Shown here: one piece after another, positions 3,583 through 59,303 of the stretch
How positions within the stretch are numbered: position 1 is the first letter of the stretch
Layout: every line of letters starts with the position of its first letter
DNA from: a virus
IMG/VR virus record: IMGVR_UViG_3300048929_000185
Span: 59,207-123,206 of that record
DNA: 64,000 bases
Strand: one strand, 5' to 3'
The notes under the pieces: model-generated
The model's database searches: none
The model's input: only the letters and a program-made list of their open reading frames with translations
What the model was told of the DNA's origin: nothing
Position numbers and translations under genes: made by a program

Positions 3583-3651
3583 ACGGACTTGTGACCGTCT
3601 GACTTGCGTCAGGTGCATTAAAACGGCTATGTGTCAGCCGTTTCACTCTGC
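3583..3651 (-). ncRNA. Twister self-cleaving ribozyme, circularly permuted (P5-type)
   Basis: Minus strand GCAGAGUG-[P1 hairpin AAACGGCU..AGCCGUUU]-UAAUGCAC-[P3 CUGAC gcaa GUCAG]-ACGGUCACAAGUCCGU matches the twister core; predicted U|A cleavage at 3620/3619. Confidence 0.8.
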
Positions 3652-3654
3652 TGA

Positions 3655-4423: not shown

Positions 4424-4499
4424 ATTTATACACCTTTCTTTATAATTATTCGCTTAATAGAAATGAGCCTATAACCTGTAACAGCTATAAGCCCTTGTT

Positions 4500-5408
4500 T
4501 CACGCTTCAATTTTCAAATCGTTAAACATTTCATTTACGTCCGTTTCGTAATATTCACACAAGGCTGAAAACGACTTAATAACGCATTGCCATTCATCTT
4601 CCTTTACATATTGTAACCATGGTTGCTTTCCTCTGTTCTGTAAATCAATGTGGTATTTATTTTTGAGTTGTTTGTATAAGTCGTTCCATACTTTACCATA
4701 ACCTACGTGTGCGTACTTGGAAAGCTTTCTGACTGCAAAATTAATACGGCTTCTATCTTCCCATTCAAGGATTCCATTTGCAAGCGCCTTGTTTGTACTT
4801 TCCAATTTGGTATTTGACTGTTCCAACTGTTTAATATGTCGGTTCTTATAATCCATCATCTTTGTTGTTGCAATCATAATAGCGTCAGGATCACCACTGG
4901 CATATGCCATACCAACAGACAGAGCAAGTGTTTGTTCTTCTGTGATATCAGCCGTTTTAATTTCTGGCGTTGCCCTTTCTTCTATATTAAGAAGTTGAGT
5001 GCGGATCTCTTTGGCTATTTCGGAATCTCTGAGCAACATTCCGACTCTTAATATTGCCCTTCTAGTAAATAAGAGGTTATTTCTATTATTAAATCTGATG
5101 TTTTCGCAAGTGAAATATCCTCTAAAGTTAGCAAGGTCCCTAGAGAACCTTCCTAAAAATTCCTTTGTTTCTGTACCTGTTAGATTTTTTAATCCATCTT
5201 CTTCAATTTCTTCTCTGTTGTCTTTTACAAGGGATTTAATTGCCTCAAGTCCCACCTCGTAATACTCGGCTACTTGCTGAGTTGTTGCTAAATCAGTGTT
5301 GGGGATAAGAAGTAACTTCTTTACCTTTTCCAGTGTTTCAACCCTTGAAACCATTTCTTCTCTTAATTCTTTGCTTTCCAATAACTCATTTGCTTCTAAT
5401 GTATACAT
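4500..5408 (-). CDS. Phage antirepressor-like DNA-binding protein
   Basis: ATTQQVAEYYEV and FTRRAILRVGMLLRDSEIAKEIR motifs plus coiled coil; AAGGAGG RBS. Confidence 0.65.
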   Translation of the reverse strand: MYTLEANELLESKELREEMVSRVETLEKVKKLLLIPNTDLATTQQVAEYYEVGLEAIKSLVKDNREEIEEDGLKNLTGTETKEFLGRFSRDLANFRGYFTCENIRFNNRNNLLFTRRAILRVGMLLRDSEIAKEIRTQLLNIEERATPEIKTADITEEQTLALSVGMAYASGDPDAIMIATTKMMDYKNRHIKQLEQSNTKLESTNKALANGILEWEDRSRINFAVRKLSKYAHVGYGKVWNDLYKQLKNKYHIDLQNRGKQPWLQYVKEDEWQCVIKSFSALCEYYETDVNEMFNDLKIEA

Positions 5409-5464
5409 TTTTCCTCCTTTATTTTTGATTATTTATGCAGTTTATTACATATTCATACAGACAA

Positions 5465-6000
5465 TAAGCCAATGATTCCAAAATAAGAAATTCACTACAT
5501 ATTAAGGATTGTGTAGCAGAGCCTCTCCTGATGAGTAGTTGCCAAGAGCCTTAATCATTGTTCCTTCCATACGTCTCAGATATGTTTGGTTTATATATTT
5601 GCCTGCATGATAAATAATAAAATGTATAACTGTTTATCCGTTCTATAATTGATTGCCTATAACAAATAGGACTTTGTGATTCCGTTCTATTCTTCTGCCT
5701 GATACTCACAGGCTCGTTATTTCGTTCAATTTGGATTCCAGTATTGTCCTATGGAATTTGTTTATTTCTATGCCGTAATGCAAGCTGATTTCACTTGCTG
5801 ACAGCTTCTATATATTCTTACGTGTCTACTTTTTCAGGACTGCCTAACCTATGGACAATGGCTACATTCTTCACTGTAGCAGATTCAAGGAAAGTCACTT
5901 TTCACATCACGTCTTAACCGTATAGAATCGGTTATGTGCAATATTCGGTTTTTTGTTATGCCGTTCAATATGTGATCAGCTTCGCCACTGATATTTTCTA
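5465..6000 (-). ncRNA. Candidate large structured ncRNA or 5' leader
   Basis: No ORF >=60 aa; many hairpins and a long-range helix 5743-5754/5848-5859; downstream of the minus-strand promoter at 6140-6168. Confidence 0.45.
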
Positions 6001-11384: not shown

Positions 11385-12239
11385 ATGGAGGGATGTATTA
11401 TTTTAACTTGTAAATTAGGAAGCGAATTTATTAATTGTTATGATGGCGGTCATGACCGGGAGCAACTCAAAAAATGGGCAGCAAAAAGAATATTATTATG
11501 CCCCGCATGTGGAAAGCCGTATGAATATTGCCACGGCAAAGTAAAAATGCCTTATTTTAGGCATATGGATAAAGAAAAGTGTGAAGACTCATATTCTGAA
11601 CCAGAAACAGAAGAACATTTGATGGGCAAATGGAGATTGTATGAATGGATAAAGAAACAAAATGGAGTTACTGATGCATATTTAGAGGGATGGATTCCAG
11701 AAACTAAACAGAGACCAGACATTGTATTTAGATACTATGGCGAAAAATGTGTAATTGAGTACCAGTGTAGCCCAATTAGCTCAGAATACTACGAAAGACA
11801 TAATCTATATAAAAGTAGTGGAATTAAAGATGTTTGGATTTGTGGAGTGGAAAAATATATACAATGTTTACACGCCGGTAGTGGAGCTAAAAGGTTAAAT
11901 GTATTAGAGGAAAGTTGTAAATTATATTTTAATTCTGAAACAAACCAATTTTATAAAATTGATCCAAGAATGACGAAAGAAGATTTTGATAAAATACGAG
12001 ATAACAAAAGATGTAAATTAATGAAAAATGTAAATGATTATGTTAATTGTAATATAAAAAAATACATCGAAGTTAAAAATTCTTCTCTTAGTTATGATAA
12101 ATTTTATAGATATCCGTCTCCTACAGGTAGAAGTTCAAGAAAGTATCCATACCCAGTTCCAGTGTTTAAGTATAGTCGTAATGTGTCTTTGGCGGAGTGT
12201 TTTGATTTAAATACGTTAGTGCTAAAAGGGATAATTTAA
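11385..12239 (+). CDS. CoiA-like nuclease
   Basis: CPACG..PYFRH..ETEEHLMGK..QRPDI..IEYQCSPIS..R..Y..GI..VW. Confidence 0.8.
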   Translation: MEGCIILTCKLGSEFINCYDGGHDREQLKKWAAKRILLCPACGKPYEYCHGKVKMPYFRHMDKEKCEDSYSEPETEEHLMGKWRLYEWIKKQNGVTDAYLEGWIPETKQRPDIVFRYYGEKCVIEYQCSPISSEYYERHNLYKSSGIKDVWICGVEKYIQCLHAGSGAKRLNVLEESCKLYFNSETNQFYKIDPRMTKEDFDKIRDNKRCKLMKNVNDYVNCNIKKYIEVKNSSLSYDKFYRYPSPTGRSSRKYPYPVPVFKYSRNVSLAECFDLNTLVLKGII

Positions 12240-12252
12240 GGAGGGAAACAAA

Positions 12253-15200
12253 TTGAGTAAAGCAAAAGTATCTCCAAGATTTATTTTAAAGATTCATTCA
12301 GCTAGATTAAGAAGAAATAACTGGAAACTAAGTTTAACAATTAGTCAGGCAAGGGAAAACAATGAACTTATCTCTCTGAATGATAGTCAAATGCTTCGAT
12401 GGTTAGATGAACTGAATAATATTAAAAATCCAAATATATATACCGAGTATTTAAAAGATAAGATAAAAAAATTAAAATATGACGATGATATCAAAAAAAC
12501 ACAAAGAGAAATTAAAATGCTTTTGAGTGAAATTGATGATTTACTATACAAGCGAGATTATGTATGCATTGTGATTGATAAGATATCAGATTTTGACAAA
12601 TTACATTTAAATGGATTTGAATTAAATAATAAGAAATACGTGAGATTACTCGGTACTACTGGTGGAGTAAAAAATGAAACAGTTGTATTTATAAGTGAAA
12701 AACATGCAGGTGAGATTAGACGGCGTATAAACAATGAAAGGGATGAAACGAAGGAATTTTCTCCTGCAAAATTAGAAGCATATAAATCTTTGACTTGTAG
12801 TGCTTCTACTCCGGTGTCGTATCCAAAAGGAATTTGTGTAGTACATGACTGTATTACTCATTTTAATTCAGATGTTATTTTATTAGATGATACAGACATA
12901 GATCAACCAAAAATGATTTTTAAAAAAGATGAGCTAATAGAGTTAATTGACAGCGATGGATACGGTTTGGGAATGCCTTCGTTAATGGAACGCTGGGGAA
13001 GTGAATTGGGGGAAGATTATATTCTGCCAGGCTGTGTTATAAGAAATAGCTTCTGTAAGGGCGCTGTATTCTGCGTCGACTTCCAAAAATTTGCAAGAGA
13101 TAGAGGAATAAAATACATACAAGACGTGTGGGGAACTTGGCACCACGTTCACAACATAGAATTAATTTTAACTGAATCTATGTTAAAACTATGGGATTCT
13201 TATCACTCTATTTATACATATCTGTACAATTGCAAAAAAAACCATTATGATTTTGCAATAACAAAAGCATCTGAAGAAAACTTAGAAAATGTTAGAAATA
13301 TGAACTATCAGTTTTTACAAAGTTACGATTTTACTGACAAAGATTTAGATGAGTTAATATCTCCTACTATATCTGAAATAAATGATATTCTTTCTGGAGA
13401 TTATAGAAAAACCATACTATACACAAAAGGAACTCATTTGACAAATAGAACGGTACAGCATCTCGACTCATCTTTCGCAACGGCTCTTATGATAGATGAG
13501 AGAATGAAAGACGACCCGTATATACAAAATCAAATTAATAAAATGATAAATAAGCGAATAAACGAAGCAAAAGTTGGAGTGTTAACTGTTCCAGCTAATT
13601 ATTCATTGGTGTGCGGAGATCCTTACTCTTTGTGTCAATCAATGTTTGGAATTAAAATAACTGGATTATTGAAATCTGGTCAGGTATATTCAAAATACTG
13701 GATTAACAGCGGAGTTTATAAAGTATCTAGTTTTCGCGCACCAATGACGTGTCATAATAATATTAGATTGTTGGAAGTTGTTCATGACGACGAAATGGAC
13801 GATTTTTACAAGTATATGACAACTATTACAATTTTTAATAGCTGGGACACGTCTGATAAAGCCATGAATGGCATGGATAAGGATTTGATTAATTTCTGTC
13901 CTTGTAAAACTTGGTGAACCTAGATATCTAGGGTGTACATATTACGGATAGGAACTGTAGGAAATGACAGTTAGAATATGTGCTAACGGGGGAGGGTTTA
14001 ATATCCTAATCGCCGTGCTAAAAATCAAATAATTATTTGATTTATGTGGAACGACTATCGAAAGGATAATTACGAAGAAATATCGTAGTGAATAACCGAG
14101 TAGAGTACATAATGTTTGAAATATCATTATGGAAGCGCCAAGGCTCAGTATGACGGTAAAAGAAATATTGAGTATGATATAGTCTATTCCCCTAATAAAT
14201 ATCGGGAAACCGAGGGTAGATAAGGGCGACTGTGTAATCAATACATCAATGGACGTTATTGTAAGGAACACAAAACAACTGCCGGCGATTATGTGTGTGC
14301 AACGAAAAGCTCCAAAATGTGTGCCTACTGAAGATGATTTTTTTCAATCAAACATAAATAGCTTTGGGAACGATGTTGGTTCAACAACAAACAAAATAAC
14401 CTCAATGTTTGAAGTTCAATCTCGTTATCCTGTTGGAAGTAGAGAATACAATATTTTGGATTATAGGATTAAGTGTGGGCAGCTTTATCAGCAAAATGCG
14501 ATAGACAAGACAAAAGGAATAGATGCAAAGCCTATGCCAGAGTCTTGGAGCGATTGGGCTTCTAACCGTCTAAGTAAACGAAATAAAGAAGGAAAAATCG
14601 AATTACTTGATTTACCAAATGACGAGAGAAAAAAAAGAGTATTTAATCGCAATGTAATCGCAGATAAGAAACCTTATTTTATGCGTTACATCTATCCGCA
14701 GTGCGATAAAGAGTATATGAATTATATTAAATACACATCTGAAAAATGTAGGATTAAATTTGACAAATCTTTAGACGAATTAATTCAATGCAAATCAAAA
14801 ACAGATGAAGAAAGTAGATTTTTTGATTATTATGAGAGTCACTTTCCTTTAGGAATGAGTCCGTGTGTAGTAAATAGGATTTGCTGGAAAATCGAAAAAG
14901 AATTTGATGGTAAATTAAATACAGATTCACGTAAAGAGTTTGATTATTCGATTCTGCAAAGTACTGGTGTTATATACTCAACAGATTTGTATAAAAAAAT
15001 ACAAAAAATATATAAAGATTATAAAACTGTATCTTCAAGATATTCGGCAGAAGCAAAAAATAAACGTATTAAATCAGACGAAAGACGATTACAAAGATAT
15101 GCCATTAAAAGTACATTTATTAATATGTGCTTAATTGCTTGCCCGGATGAAGATATTTTATGTAATATTATATTAGACATGTGCTACAAAAATAATTCGT

Positions 15201-15391
15201 CAAAACAGTTTGCGTGGGATGTATGTGGAAAAACATTTATTAAAAATTTACTCAGATTAAATGATTTTAAAATTTCGTATCCAACAAAATCGGGTGATGG
15301 TGACATAATTTTTAATGGTGAAAAATTTAAAATTGAAACCTGTGATATAAAAGTTGAAGTAAATGTTGATGATTCGGAGGAAAATGAATGA
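12253..15391 (+). CDS. yonO: YonO-like single-subunit (RdRP-homologous) DNA-dependent RNA polymerase; exons 12253-13884 and 14225-15391, 932 aa spliced
   Basis: SDGYG, IRN..CKG, FRAP and AIDKTKG motifs; splicing restores the catalytic NGMDKDGD in frame. Confidence 0.88.
13885..14224 (+). ncRNA. Group I intron (IA-like, 340 nt, no homing endonuclease ORF)
   Basis: Exon 1 ends in U paired to G of the IGS GUCCUUGU (13898-13905); P3 CUUGGUG/CGCCAAG; P7 GACUA (14053)/UAGUC (14180); terminal G at 14224. Confidence 0.9.
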
Positions 15392-16158
15392 GCTTAATAT
15401 TAAATGAGGTTAAATATGTAGAAGAAATTTTAAAAACAGGCGAAGTGGGCAGAAAGCCTTCTTCTACCCTGTTATTACTTGCAAAATATTATTATAACGA
15501 AAAATGCTTAAGAGACAAAGAAATTGAGATAAAACTTGATGAGTTTATGAATAAAAATTATCCAAACTATAATAAAGTGTTTTGGGAAAATAGTATTGAA
15601 TCATATTCAAAAAAGGCTGGTAAGTACACATTAAATAAAATTGAAGAAATTCCAATTACGGAGTTAGAGTTAAAAGTGATTGCATCTGTATGTGATTCAA
15701 GATTGGAAAGGTTTTTATTCACGATGCTGTGTTATGCAAAGGCTTATGATATGATAAATGATAAAAATAATGGGTGGATAAATACAGATCTATCAGTTAT
15801 CTACAATACTGCAAGATTAAGGGCGAGGAGGAGCGATGATCGGTTCCATATGGTAAATCAATTATTAAAACTATCTTATGGGCAAAACAATGATTTATTA
15901 ATATCGATATCTCAAAAAAATACCAATAGAAATATAAAAATAAACTTTATAGATTTTTCAAATAACGTAGTTTTACATATATCAGATTTAAGAGAACTTG
16001 GGTACGAATATATGTTGTATAAAGGAGACAATTTTGTCAGATGTGAGAAATGTGGGCGATTAATTAGAAAGAAAAAAAACAAAAAATATTGTTCTGAGTG
16101 TTCTGTTTTAGCAAGAAATGATAGACAGAAAGAATATATGAGAATAAGAAGATGTTAG
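15388..16158 (+). CDS. Hypothetical protein with C-terminal zinc finger, coupled to RNAP
   Basis: ATGA overlap with the RNAP stop; CEKC..CSEC. Confidence 0.8.
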   Translation: MSLILNEVKYVEEILKTGEVGRKPSSTLLLLAKYYYNEKCLRDKEIEIKLDEFMNKNYPNYNKVFWENSIESYSKKAGKYTLNKIEEIPITELELKVIASVCDSRLERFLFTMLCYAKAYDMINDKNNGWINTDLSVIYNTARLRARRSDDRFHMVNQLLKLSYGQNNDLLISISQKNTNRNIKINFIDFSNNVVLHISDLRELGYEYMLYKGDNFVRCEKCGRLIRKKKNKKYCSECSVLARNDRQKEYMRIRRC

Positions 16159-32921: not shown

Positions 32922-33917
32922 ATGAGTAAAGAAATTATCAAAATTGCGGTAGAGGCATATAAGGGAAGACAGTATGGAAATTATTCCACTTCCGATTCAA
33001 TGGAAGTATTAAGAAACGCTTTAGTAGAAGCAAATAATGGCAAGGCATATTTAGATTATAGAGACATTCGAGATGGAAAATGCAGTGGATTATTCGCAAT
33101 TATGGAAGAGATTATCACAAAGACAGTTCTTGAAGGACTGCCAGACTCCTCTCCTATTTTCCAGTTTGTAGATTTTAGAAATAAGGCACTCGGCGATCAG
33201 GATTCCTTTATCGTAAGGGATACTGGTCTTTTTACTGTTGCCGATATTGCTGAAGGAACACAGGGAGTAAGAAGACAGAGAGCCGTAAGCGGAGAAACAA
33301 TTTATGTAACTCCACAGCTGAAGGCAATTAAGATCTATGATGAACTGAATCTTATTTTAGCTAATCGTATTGATATGAACGAATTAATTAACAGAGTATC
33401 AAGATCTTTTATTGCTAAGACAAATACAGACATCTACACATCATTTGCCGGTACATATTCTAAACTTGTTGCACCATATCAGGTATCAGGTACATTTGCA
33501 GAAGATAAACTTGCAACATTAATTGATCATGTAGAAGCAGCTACTGGTATGACTGCATATGTTTTAGGTTCAAAACAGGCAGTTAGAAAGATTACTGGCG
33601 TTAAGGGTGCTGATTCAGATTCTGCAAAAGAGGCTCTTTACAACGTAGGATATTATGGTAACTTTGGAGCAAATCCAGTTATCGCAATGCAGAACGCTCA
33701 CAAAGTGGGTTCTACTGATTTTGTTTTAAATGATACAGATTTACATGTTGTAGCAGGTGAAGATAAATTTATCAAGTATGTAACAGAAGGTGATACCTTG
33801 ATTATTCCGGGAACACCAATGTCTAACGCAGATCTCTCCCAGGAGTTCTTAATGGCTCAAAGAAGCAATGCAGGTATCGTTATGTCTGAAGTGTTTGGAT
33901 GTTATAGAATTGGCTAA
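32922..33917 (+). CDS. Major capsid protein
   Basis: 331 aa; position; FAIMEEII..VAEG-like motifs; followed by a terminator. Confidence 0.8.
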   Translation: MSKEIIKIAVEAYKGRQYGNYSTSDSMEVLRNALVEANNGKAYLDYRDIRDGKCSGLFAIMEEIITKTVLEGLPDSSPIFQFVDFRNKALGDQDSFIVRDTGLFTVADIAEGTQGVRRQRAVSGETIYVTPQLKAIKIYDELNLILANRIDMNELINRVSRSFIAKTNTDIYTSFAGTYSKLVAPYQVSGTFAEDKLATLIDHVEAATGMTAYVLGSKQAVRKITGVKGADSDSAKEALYNVGYYGNFGANPVIAMQNAHKVGSTDFVLNDTDLHVVAGEDKFIKYVTEGDTLIIPGTPMSNADLSQEFLMAQRSNAGIVMSEVFGCYRIG

Positions 33918-54682: not shown

Positions 54683-54868
54683 ACAGGATAAATATATTTT
54701 ATATAGCCTTCCTTAAGCTTAAGTTATAAATGTATGGCAATTGCCGATATTTACAAAAGCAGCTTATGTTCGTTGGCTCATGACAAGTTTGAATAGGGAT
54801 GGCATAATCCCACCTGCGATTTTTATATTAAATAGAAAAGCACTTGCTTAACGGTAGGTGCTTTTCTA
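54683..54868 (+). ncRNA. Candidate antitoxin sRNA (pemK-motif-like) downstream of toxin
   Basis: Promoter TTTACA-17-TATAAT at 54648-54676 overlapping the toxin stop; ORF-less; ends in terminator AAAAGCACTTGC..GTAGGTGCTTTT. Confidence 0.55.
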
Positions 54869-54996
54869 TGTATAAAATTATTATATTCCATACCCTCAGA
54901 AATAATCCACAATTTTACAATTTAATATTATTTTTCATTTTTATCCTCTAAGTTAGAATGGAGCCAGTCTACTTAATGTAGGTGGCTCTTTTTGCG

Positions 54997-59135: not shown

Positions 59136-59303
59136 AAAAAGAAGATAAAGAAGGGAAAACGCTTAAAAATAGCGTCAAACCCTTTATTTATATGACTTTC
59201 AGCGTTTTTAAAATGTGCGAAATTTCAACATATAAAAAATATACGCTTAAATTCTGCACATTTTGGATAAGTATAAAAAACAATAATATTTAAACAGGAG
59301 GAT

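Follow-up and report, generated by a model that had tools for sequence, protein, structure and literature searches.

We analyzed a 64,000-nt stretch of viral DNA (hereafter the window), which corresponds to positions 59,207 to 123,206 of IMG/VR virus record IMGVR_UViG_3300048929_000185, makes up the last 64 kb of that 123-kb record and has a G+C content of ~33%. Two neighboring open reading frames (ORFs) listed on its + strand, a 554-aa frame at 12253-13917 with a TTG start and a 380-aa frame at 14249-15391, are very probably the two parts of one gene for a YonO-family RNA polymerase that is interrupted by a group I intron, which would belong to the SPO1-type lineage and remove itself by self-splicing. 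The gene is laid out as follows:

12253..13884, + strand: exon 1 of the YonO-like RNA polymerase gene (544 codons, TTG start, ending ...NGMDKD)
13885..14224, + strand: ORF-less group I intron (340 nt, last base G14224)
14225..15391, + strand: exon 2 (388 codons and stop), opening with GGC GAC, which encodes GD, the end of the DxDGD loop

Proposed splice junction

The initial annotation, which was made from the DNA letters alone, had described these exon ends, a 340-nt insert and an exon 2 in frame with the 14249 ORF, and all three were found in the sequence. The 5' boundary (13884/13885) reads ATG GAT AAG GAT|TTGATT and the 3' boundary (14224/14225) reads GATAAG|GGC GAC TGT, with exon 2 in frame with the ATG at 14249. 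The frame of exon 1 is closed inside the insert by a stop at 13915-13917, 31 nt in, and joining the exons by coordinates gives a stop-free protein of 932 aa (...AMNGMDKD|GDCVINTS...). Within the codons for the catalytic DKD|GD loop, the insert comes after the second Asp and before the Gly, so that the full Asp triad is in neither of the unspliced fragments and DKD|GD is present only in the spliced product. The proposed DKD|GD junction also held when the joined product was aligned with MAFFT, since it aligned across the junction with the uninterrupted protein of Enterocloster phage PMBT24 (AMNGCDFDGDAIYS), with that of Bacillus phage BUCT082 (SDFDYD) and with SPbeta YonO (DNDGD).

In the mechanism that we propose, guanosine would attack after U13884, exon ligation would follow G14224, and a polymerase with all three catalytic Asp residues would be made only from the spliced mRNA. 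The intron would be a selfish, formerly mobile element whose presence would also remove the target of related homing nucleases.

The interrupted gene encodes a YonO-family polymerase

We assigned the host gene as a predicted YonO-family two-barrel RNA polymerase based on tblastn matches to yonO, the alignment of the Asp triad and profile matches to PDB entries, in agreement with the earlier description of a YonO-like polymerase split within DxDGD. In tblastn searches exon 1 matched the yonO genes of SPbeta-like phages through its residues 121-479 with 28-30% identity (E 3e-18 to 7e-20; for SPBc2, 28.8% over residues 121-479, E 3e-18), and some of these matches are annotated as DNA-directed RNA polymerase. 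The match of exon 1 to CST179 of Clostridium phage c-st, which is annotated as a 'YonO-homolog (N-ter only)', was at 42.4% identity (E 3e-129), and exon 2 has 37% amino acid identity to c-st. Exon 2 alone gave no significant BLASTP match to YonO; it aligns with YonO at DxDGD and at the G...G..TN motif that follows. Exon 1 holds the FRAPMTCH motif (residues 494-501) and the first barrel motif. The family is large, with exon 1 matching 998 clusters at an E limit of 1e-3, or 267 when the limit is 1e-30, and in all 43 full-length relatives (43/43) the Asp triad, R-x-P, the first-barrel motifs, G..TN and ID..K were invariant.

When a profile of the family was searched against PDB, the top 7 of 11 matches were RNA-dependent polymerases of the RDR2/QDE-1 type (E 0.0065-0.03), which matched at the first-barrel motif and, in a second, sub-threshold match, at the DxDGD loop; the same search with exon 1 alone returned no relevant match. 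According to the accessible text of Forrest 2017, YonO drives the late genes of SPbeta and its Asp triad is essential, activity being abolished by Asn substitution (PMC5467207).

The expectation that automated annotation would report such a gene as fragments is borne out by several cases. Phage c-st is the closest named phage and has a 317-nt insert at the same boundary as well as the same downstream partner ORF (described below); its parts are annotated as CST179, CST178 ('hypothetical') and CST177 ('YonO-homolog (C-ter only)'), and the insert is not annotated as an intron. In phage CB457P1 the gene is recorded in pieces as CB457P1_00001-3. The halves of the window gene fall into two different PHROG families: exon 1 corresponds to positions 1-544 of the 558-position profile of phrog_25339 (E 7e-169) and exon 2 matches phrog_35857 (E 7.5e-67). 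Both families are listed as of 'unknown function' and appear to have been built from intron-split polymerase halves. A pair of 'hypothetical' ORFs, like the two PHROG families without an assigned function, would thereby become halves of one RNA polymerase. Among cultured phages, the same mis-split annotation is found in c-st and CB457P1, and in Bacillus phage Goe11 at a different site. The c-st exon-1 fragment BAE47877.1 is cited as a YonO-like enzyme by Iyer et al. 2021, with the intron unmentioned in the text available of that paper (PMC7824862).

The insert belongs with SPO1-type group I introns

In a search of 701 nt, Intron_gpI (RF00028) was matched over its full length (21.3 bits, E 0.0045; for the cut-off see below) and was the only Rfam family with E < 1 on the stretch. 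The lineage of the insert was indicated by its 3' core (~14160-14227), which had megablast matches in 212 phage records, mostly at 95-99% identity over 50-60 nt. These came from phages of Staphylococcus, Listeria, Enterococcus and Bacillus, and they include the split terminase region of phage Romulus, where a coding sequence named 'group I intron protein' is ~750 nt downstream. The longest match (173 nt, 76%) was to an insert that splits the DNA polymerase I gene of the SPO1-like Bacillus phage SDFMU_Pbc, which we read as a 311-nt intron (L013, 1365-1675) located after ...FGLAYG and having a P1 with U.G. We accordingly place the window intron in the SPO1-type DNA-polymerase intron lineage of Bacillus and Staphylococcus phages, with a predicted subgroup IA architecture that includes P7.1 and P7.2. 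With the SDFMU_Pbc intron it shares the helix order and the P1 U.G, as well as the GUAAAAC-P3-AAC motif, P7.1/P7.2, the GAAA-capped P9.1 and the terminal G. That last base, G14224 in the window, precedes the GG of exon 2 in 6/6 aligned homologues and also in c-st and CB457P1.

SPO1/SP82/Bastille-type introns host the nicking HNH endonucleases I-HmuI and I-BasI, and the SPO1 intron reportedly self-splices, a result ascribed to Goodrich-Blair et al. in 1990. The window intron differs from those introns in its host gene, which is an RNA polymerase gene rather than a DNA polymerase gene, and in its setting: it is found in a phage of Clostridia-type gut bacteria, and not in a Herelleviridae phage.

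The possibility that the gene is interrupted by some other element, whether an intein, a group II intron, an insertion sequence (IS) or a miniature inverted-repeat transposable element (MITE), can be given almost no credence. The interruption itself would be accounted for, and nothing further was found in favor of another type of element. An intein is ruled out because the exon-1 frame is closed after 31 nt of the insert. A group I identity is in keeping with the fold, the U.G pair, the terminal G and the lone Rfam match, and in the 123-kb record the only other match to the insert was a 22-nt reverse-strand match inside the intron itself.

Predicted fold and covariation

A 357-nt stretch folded with an energy z score of -4.64, and 0 of 100 shuffles folded as well. 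The introns of the window, of a relative (L008) and of SDFMU_Pbc (L013) were used as input for RNAalifold, which predicted 83 pairs, 17 of them with both sides changed among the three introns. Alignments of the wider intron family made with MAFFT were too poor for pair counting; six ORF-less introns (those of the window, L008, L127, L131, L114 and L013) were therefore cut at conserved single-stranded anchors and the pieces were folded separately. The helices are located as follows:

13877-13884 (AUAAGGAU, exon) with 13898-13905 (GUCCUUGU, internal guide), + strand: P1, with the U13884.G13898 wobble at the 5' splice site
13910-13916 (CUUGGUG) with 14136-14142 (CGCCAAG), + strand: P3, 7 pairs by RNAalifold, placed by covariation
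13919-13932 and 13935-13983, + strand: two extra hairpins, covarying, between the P3 5' strand and P4
13986-14016, + strand: P4-P5, from the Rfam alignment; a hairpin in 6/6 introns
14017-14047, + strand: P6/P6a, from the Rfam alignment; a hairpin in 6/6 introns
14053-14058 (GACUAU) with 14179-14184 (AUAGUC), + strand: P7, the expected guanosine-binding helix, from the Rfam alignment
14064-14097, + strand: P7.1, a peripheral hairpin typical of subgroup IA
14108-14131, + strand: P7.2, a peripheral hairpin typical of subgroup IA
14144-14172, + strand: P8 hairpin; folds in 6/6 introns
14189-14216, + strand: P9 and P9.1, in which P9 (CCC/GGG) encloses P9.1 (14203-14212, GAAA loop); followed by the tail to G14224

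Across the six introns P1, P4-P5, P6, P7.1, P7.2, P8 and P9.1 (GAAA- or CGAC-capped) folded in every case from different sequences. Covariation in these introns and in L076 was seen in P3, P7, P7.1, P7.2 and P8. For example, P3 pair 27/257, U-A in the window, appears as G-C in L013 and as A-U in L076; the last pair of P7, whose 3' strand is part of the conserved GAUAUAGUC, is U-A in the window but corresponds to C-G in L114; and in P7.1, the G-C at pair 181/212 of the window is replaced by C-G in L131 and by U-A in L127. In the RNAalifold prediction P1 has 8 pairs, of which 3 are changed on both sides, and the U.G is present in 3/3 introns. Of the helices named by the initial annotation, the U.G P1, P4, P7, P7.1/7.2 and the terminal G stood as described; P3 had also been named, and its position was fixed at 13910-13916/14136-14142 by the covariation.

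All 81 modelled pairs (81/81) are standard in the window intron. Compared with the intron of L008, the window sequence is changed at 28 of 340 positions, affecting 10 pairs, of which 8 are kept (1 by a double change and 7 through wobble) and 2 are broken, both at helix ends; the 3 changes in P8 preserve all of its pairs. These results bear on the question of whether splicing has been lost, leaving either a pseudogene or two fragments that assemble as a split polymerase. A decayed insertion of this kind would be expected in an intron without an endonuclease gene, and it would fit with the low Rfam score and with the ATG that follows the first eight codons of exon 2, at 14249, as a possible start. 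It is nevertheless very unlikely in view of the intact pairs, the predominance of pair-preserving changes relative to L008 and the fact that both exons are open and conserved (89% amino acid identity to L008 in exon 1 and 77% in exon 2). Furthermore, a product that began at 14249 would be without the Gly-Asp of the triad, the same triad in which Asn substitution inactivates YonO.

Several observations weigh against the assignment as a self-splicing group I intron and are brought together here. The Rfam score of 21.3 bits is under the curated cut-off of 50, so that the group I model scan suggested in the initial annotation gave a full-length match that falls short of that threshold. The intron was not listed in scans of the whole window with Rfam, either at the gathering cut-offs or at E up to 0.5, and it was missed by a search of the whole 123-kb record with RF00028. 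The predicted fold has an oddity in the two hairpins between the P3 5' strand and P4, which are not in the textbook order. The Rfam alignment puts P1 on the first of these hairpins and P3 on 13977-13984/14104-14111, and the covariation contradicts both placements. P10 would have 2 bp at best. The covariation itself comes from six related introns that were segmented at our own anchors, with no formal test. Finally, none of the sequencing runs listed as containing the stretch is RNA, and splicing is therefore inferred; in three DNA sequencing runs the contigs span the intron and no joined-exon sequence was found.

With regard to the low score, the Rfam model under-scores this subtype of intron, because homologues of the same type are also below 50 bits, whereas introns at a different site in the same gene family (site A, below) reach 92.9 and 91.7 bits. 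The homologous DNA-polymerase I intron of SDFMU_Pbc scored 41.2 bits (E 1e-7), the same-site intron of L131 scored 41.3 bits and another homologous intron of the same type scored 22.6 bits, the last two being likewise under the cut-off. The c-st insert, when scanned alone, was identified as group I at 25.4 bits (E 1.5e-4), and a scan of L001, L003 and L006 together gave no match at E up to 0.1.

With regard to the extra hairpins, their stems differ in sequence and keep their complementarity in 6/6 introns. The first folds in 4 of the 6, the remaining two being complementary but too weak for the energy model, and the second folds in 5 of the 6. In L076 and L025 the same helix leads directly into P4, without the two hairpins. 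The P3 of the Rfam alignment was dropped, as its 3' strand falls within P7.2, a hairpin with covariation, and changes in its 5' strand go uncompensated in L013, L114 and L067.

Alleles at the same site in related phages

Five relatives were fetched by protein similarity to exon 1, two of them from IMG/VR and three from genomes (two Lachnospiraceae and one metagenome-assembled genome labelled Bacteroides). Four of the five (L007, L009, L010 and L011; 63-67% identity) are contiguous at the exact codon boundary, with the exon-1 match running up to base 5632 and the exon-2 match starting from base 5633. The fifth, L008, has a homologous intron of 339 nt at the same place. Its nucleotide identity to the window is 92% in the intron (312/339), 84% in exon 1 (1371/1632) and 76% in exon 2 (884/1161). 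In a phage collection PMBT24 and BUCT082 were also contiguous at the boundary, so that the survey of intron-minus alleles suggested by the initial annotation did yield such alleles. From the same collection, inserts at the same boundary were identified in c-st (317 nt, NGMDMD|GDAV), CB457P1 (531 nt, SDFD|GDAI) and MT835481 (948 nt, DADFD|GDIS), and these three are closed by the same hairpin-GGGUA-tail-G motif. The intron core of c-st differs from that of the window, with no window-type P7.1/P7.2 block seen by eye.

Introns of the same type were further found by tblastn at the DxD|GD boundary of YonO-like genes in L127, L131, L114, L077 and L067/L123; these loci were retrieved from IMG/VR through the 5' motif of the intron and are intron-plus by construction. 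Metagenome run X2 contains a second intron variant beside that of the window, with 13 differences over 14042-14201. This variant carries the compensatory pair 14072 A>G / 14086 T>C, the same two changes as in L008, by which P7.1 pair 188/202, A-U in the window, becomes G-C in both L008 and the second variant.

Endonuclease genes and mobility

No ORF of at least 40 aa was found on the + strand of the intron, and its only ORF of at least 60 aa is a 109-aa reverse-strand frame that matched 0 Pfam families. The description of the insert as an ORF-less group I intron thus agrees with its structure, its homology, its exact in-frame excision and its lack of a recognizable gene. In sibling introns at the same site the Pfam domain HNH_3 was found in ORFs of 170 aa (L077), 174 aa (L067) and 229 aa (L006, with NUMOD4), and the HNH genes of L077 and L067 are located in the P6 loop. 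L127 has a long P6 stem like that around the HNH gene of L077, without the gene itself. The window copy, without an ORF, has lost, or never had, the HNH homing-endonuclease gene carried by its same-site siblings, whose genes in P6 match the arrangement of the SPO1-type lineage.

Three allele states are therefore present at one site: intron-less, endonuclease-less intron and endonuclease-bearing intron. Homing introns are marked by just such a combination of patchy spread, siblings with endonucleases and insertion at invariant codons. As set out in the accessible text of PMC3984707, an occupied homing site is immune to its own endonuclease, and homing sites often encode functionally critical residues. 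The initial annotation had suggested protection from a cognate homing nuclease; given the HNH_3 siblings at the same site and the immunity of an occupied site, it is reasonable to infer that the window intron would protect the gene from related homing nucleases.

A nuclease gene directly upstream of the polymerase gene was considered as a homing partner:

11385-12239, + strand: CoiA-like nuclease ORF (PF06054, E 9e-27)

This role was ruled out, as the presence of the ORF does not track the intron: a homologue is upstream of the polymerase gene in the intron-less L007 and BUCT082, and it is absent in L008, which has the intron, through L011.

Further insertion sites across the family

Two further sites of insertion were apparent in the family. 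At site A (FRAPMT|CHNN) there are group I introns in L114 (470-708) and L131 (5042-5308), with Rfam scores above the cut-off (92.9 and 91.7 bits, respectively). We take the site A motif to resemble the RAPTLH motif of bacterial beta'. Site C (...ID|K.KG) lies 93 residues past the splice site in window numbering, at YonO residue 625|626, and is occupied in L077 (with a NUMOD3 ORF), in L114 and in CB457P1. Inserts at site C were located as follows:

L077: 3853-4968
L114: 1453-2531
L003: 2558-3037
L163 (Goe11): 4480-5769

The Goe11 gene, which carries the annotations yonO_1 and yonO_2, is interrupted at TID|FAK by 1290 nt, which contain a 300-aa ORF that looks GIY-YIG-like by eye and give a weak group I match in Rfam (18.9 bits).

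To gauge how often the gene is interrupted, protein ends were counted in the best 150 clusters of the exon-1 family, the counts being of protein ends only:

Past position 800: 95/150 clusters
Inside the catalytic loop: 21/150 clusters
At site C: 10/150 clusters
At site A: 2/150 clusters
Elsewhere: 22/150 clusters

At least 33 of these best 150 clusters end at one of the intron sites. Of the 21 loop clusters, 6 break off after the second Asp, matching the window, 5 are ambiguous and 10 (P0020, P0039, P0041, P0056, P0059, P0068, P0076, P0081, P0102 and P0110) end exactly at the first Asp (...NG.D) without a tail, which suggests that there may be another insertion point 6 nt upstream of the one in the window. 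No related loci were found for P0041 and P0020, and the phage collection gave only loci that were already known. YonO-family genes thus appear to be a recurrent target of introns, at three or four points that lie in invariant motifs (RAPMT|CH, D|xD|GD and ID|KxKG).

The kind of intron is well known and no new mechanism is involved; it is the YonO polymerase family that had not previously been noted as a frequent target. No paper linking YonO with group I introns was found in the literature searched, although supplementary alignments (Forrest 2017, Iyer 2021) might show split homologues, and none combined Enterocloster, phage and 'group I intron'. The word 'intron' is absent from the accessible text of Forrest 2017 (PMC5467207), of a preprint on SPbeta relatives and of a preprint on Actinobacteria/Firmicutes phages. 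Likewise, 'group I intron' does not occur in the available text of Iyer 2021 (PMC7824862), where a single passage on self-splicing introns names other genes, and in that of Ruprich-Robert and Thuriaux 2010 the one mention of an intron concerns phage 201phi2-1.

The initial annotation had raised the possibility that splicing is a checkpoint for virion gene expression. A regulatory role, in which slow or condition-dependent splicing (for example through GTP or translation) gates the late-gene polymerase as a timer, would draw on the dependence of the full Asp triad on splicing, the role of YonO in SPbeta late transcription, the position of the polymerase gene ahead of a long series of large ORFs on the same strand (among them frames of 2139 and 945 aa), the better conservation of the intron than of the exons relative to L008 and the co-option of group I ribozymes for regulation elsewhere, as described for a c-di-GMP riboswitch-intron in the available text of PMC3984707. 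We nonetheless regard it as very unlikely. The life cycle does not need the intron, given that 4 of the 5 close relatives and 95 of the best 150 family clusters are uninterrupted, and a selfish element would fit the patchy occurrence, the siblings with endonuclease genes and the existence of several alternative sites. In addition, the 701-nt Rfam scan showed neither a sensor domain nor an aptamer beside the intron, and the higher conservation of the intron is equally explained by constraint on the ribozyme or by recent spread. Most relatives are without the intron, and the checkpoint proposal is left unsupported. A broader scenario, which joins rate-limiting or condition-sensitive splicing as a late-polymerase timer to a catalytic loop that is a battleground for the intron-borne HNH nucleases of co-infecting gut phages, by which these phages would knock out one another's late transcription, with the ORF-less intron as the immunity allele, is likewise considered very unlikely.

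Comparison with other phage polymerase genes

A close parallel to the selfish, formerly mobile intron proposed here is in phage PhiPA3, in which a putative group I intron (the gp210 intron) follows right after two conserved Asp residues in the RNA polymerase beta-subunit gene of a jumbo phage, and the HNH endonuclease of the intron harms a co-infecting phage by cutting its intron-less allele (Birkholz et al. 2024, accessible text, PMC11620839). In both phages the intron is in an RNA polymerase gene beside conserved Asp. The polymerase of PhiPA3 is a multi-subunit enzyme with the intron in the beta-like barrel, whereas the window intron is in the DxDGD loop; and the PhiPA3 intron has an endonuclease and a role in competition that was shown experimentally, whereas the window intron is ORF-less and known from sequence alone. 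The endonuclease-bearing, endonuclease-less and empty alleles described above would provide a natural system for intron-mediated competition among gut phages, as in PhiPA3.

SPbeta YonO and the window protein are members of the same family (~29% identity over 359 residues) with DNDGD and DKDGD loops, respectively. YonO of SPBc2 is an uninterrupted single chain of 839 aa, in contrast to the 932 aa of the window protein with its 256-aa downstream ORF. As noted, yonO is also split in the SPbeta-like phage Goe11, at a different site (625|626).

Downstream ORF and other features of the window

The polymerase gene is followed by an ORF whose start overlaps the polymerase stop:

15388..16158, + strand: conserved downstream ORF, 256 aa

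Homologues of this ORF were identified by tblastn behind the polymerase gene in 8 of 10 other loci, and in BUCT082 by profile (E 2.7e-32); the ORF is kept after the polymerase in c-st, PMBT24, CB457P1, BUCT082 and L007-L011. Its C-terminal part is Cys-rich and zinc-ribbon-like and matches the tail of YonO (residues 783-835; E 1.4e-6 in a search of 3 sequences). It is likely that the ORF encodes a partner or second chain of the polymerase, and because the C-terminus of this conserved, overlapping ORF matches the YonO tail, the polymerase may consist of two chains in this clade. The 'single-subunit' label used in the initial annotation may consequently not hold, while the YonO-like assignment itself does.

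Three other Rfam matches were recorded in the window. An Intron_gpI match of 14.2 bits at 33561-33786 (+), inside the ORF at 32922-33917, was set aside as probably due to chance, and a SurA match at 54750-54869 (+), with 27.4 bits against a cut-off of 100, is also probably chance. A match to the type-P5 twister ribozyme at 3583-3652 (-) scored 51.3 bits against the Rfam cut-off of 37.6 (E 9.8e-8) and would be the second self-cleaving or catalytic RNA of the phage record.

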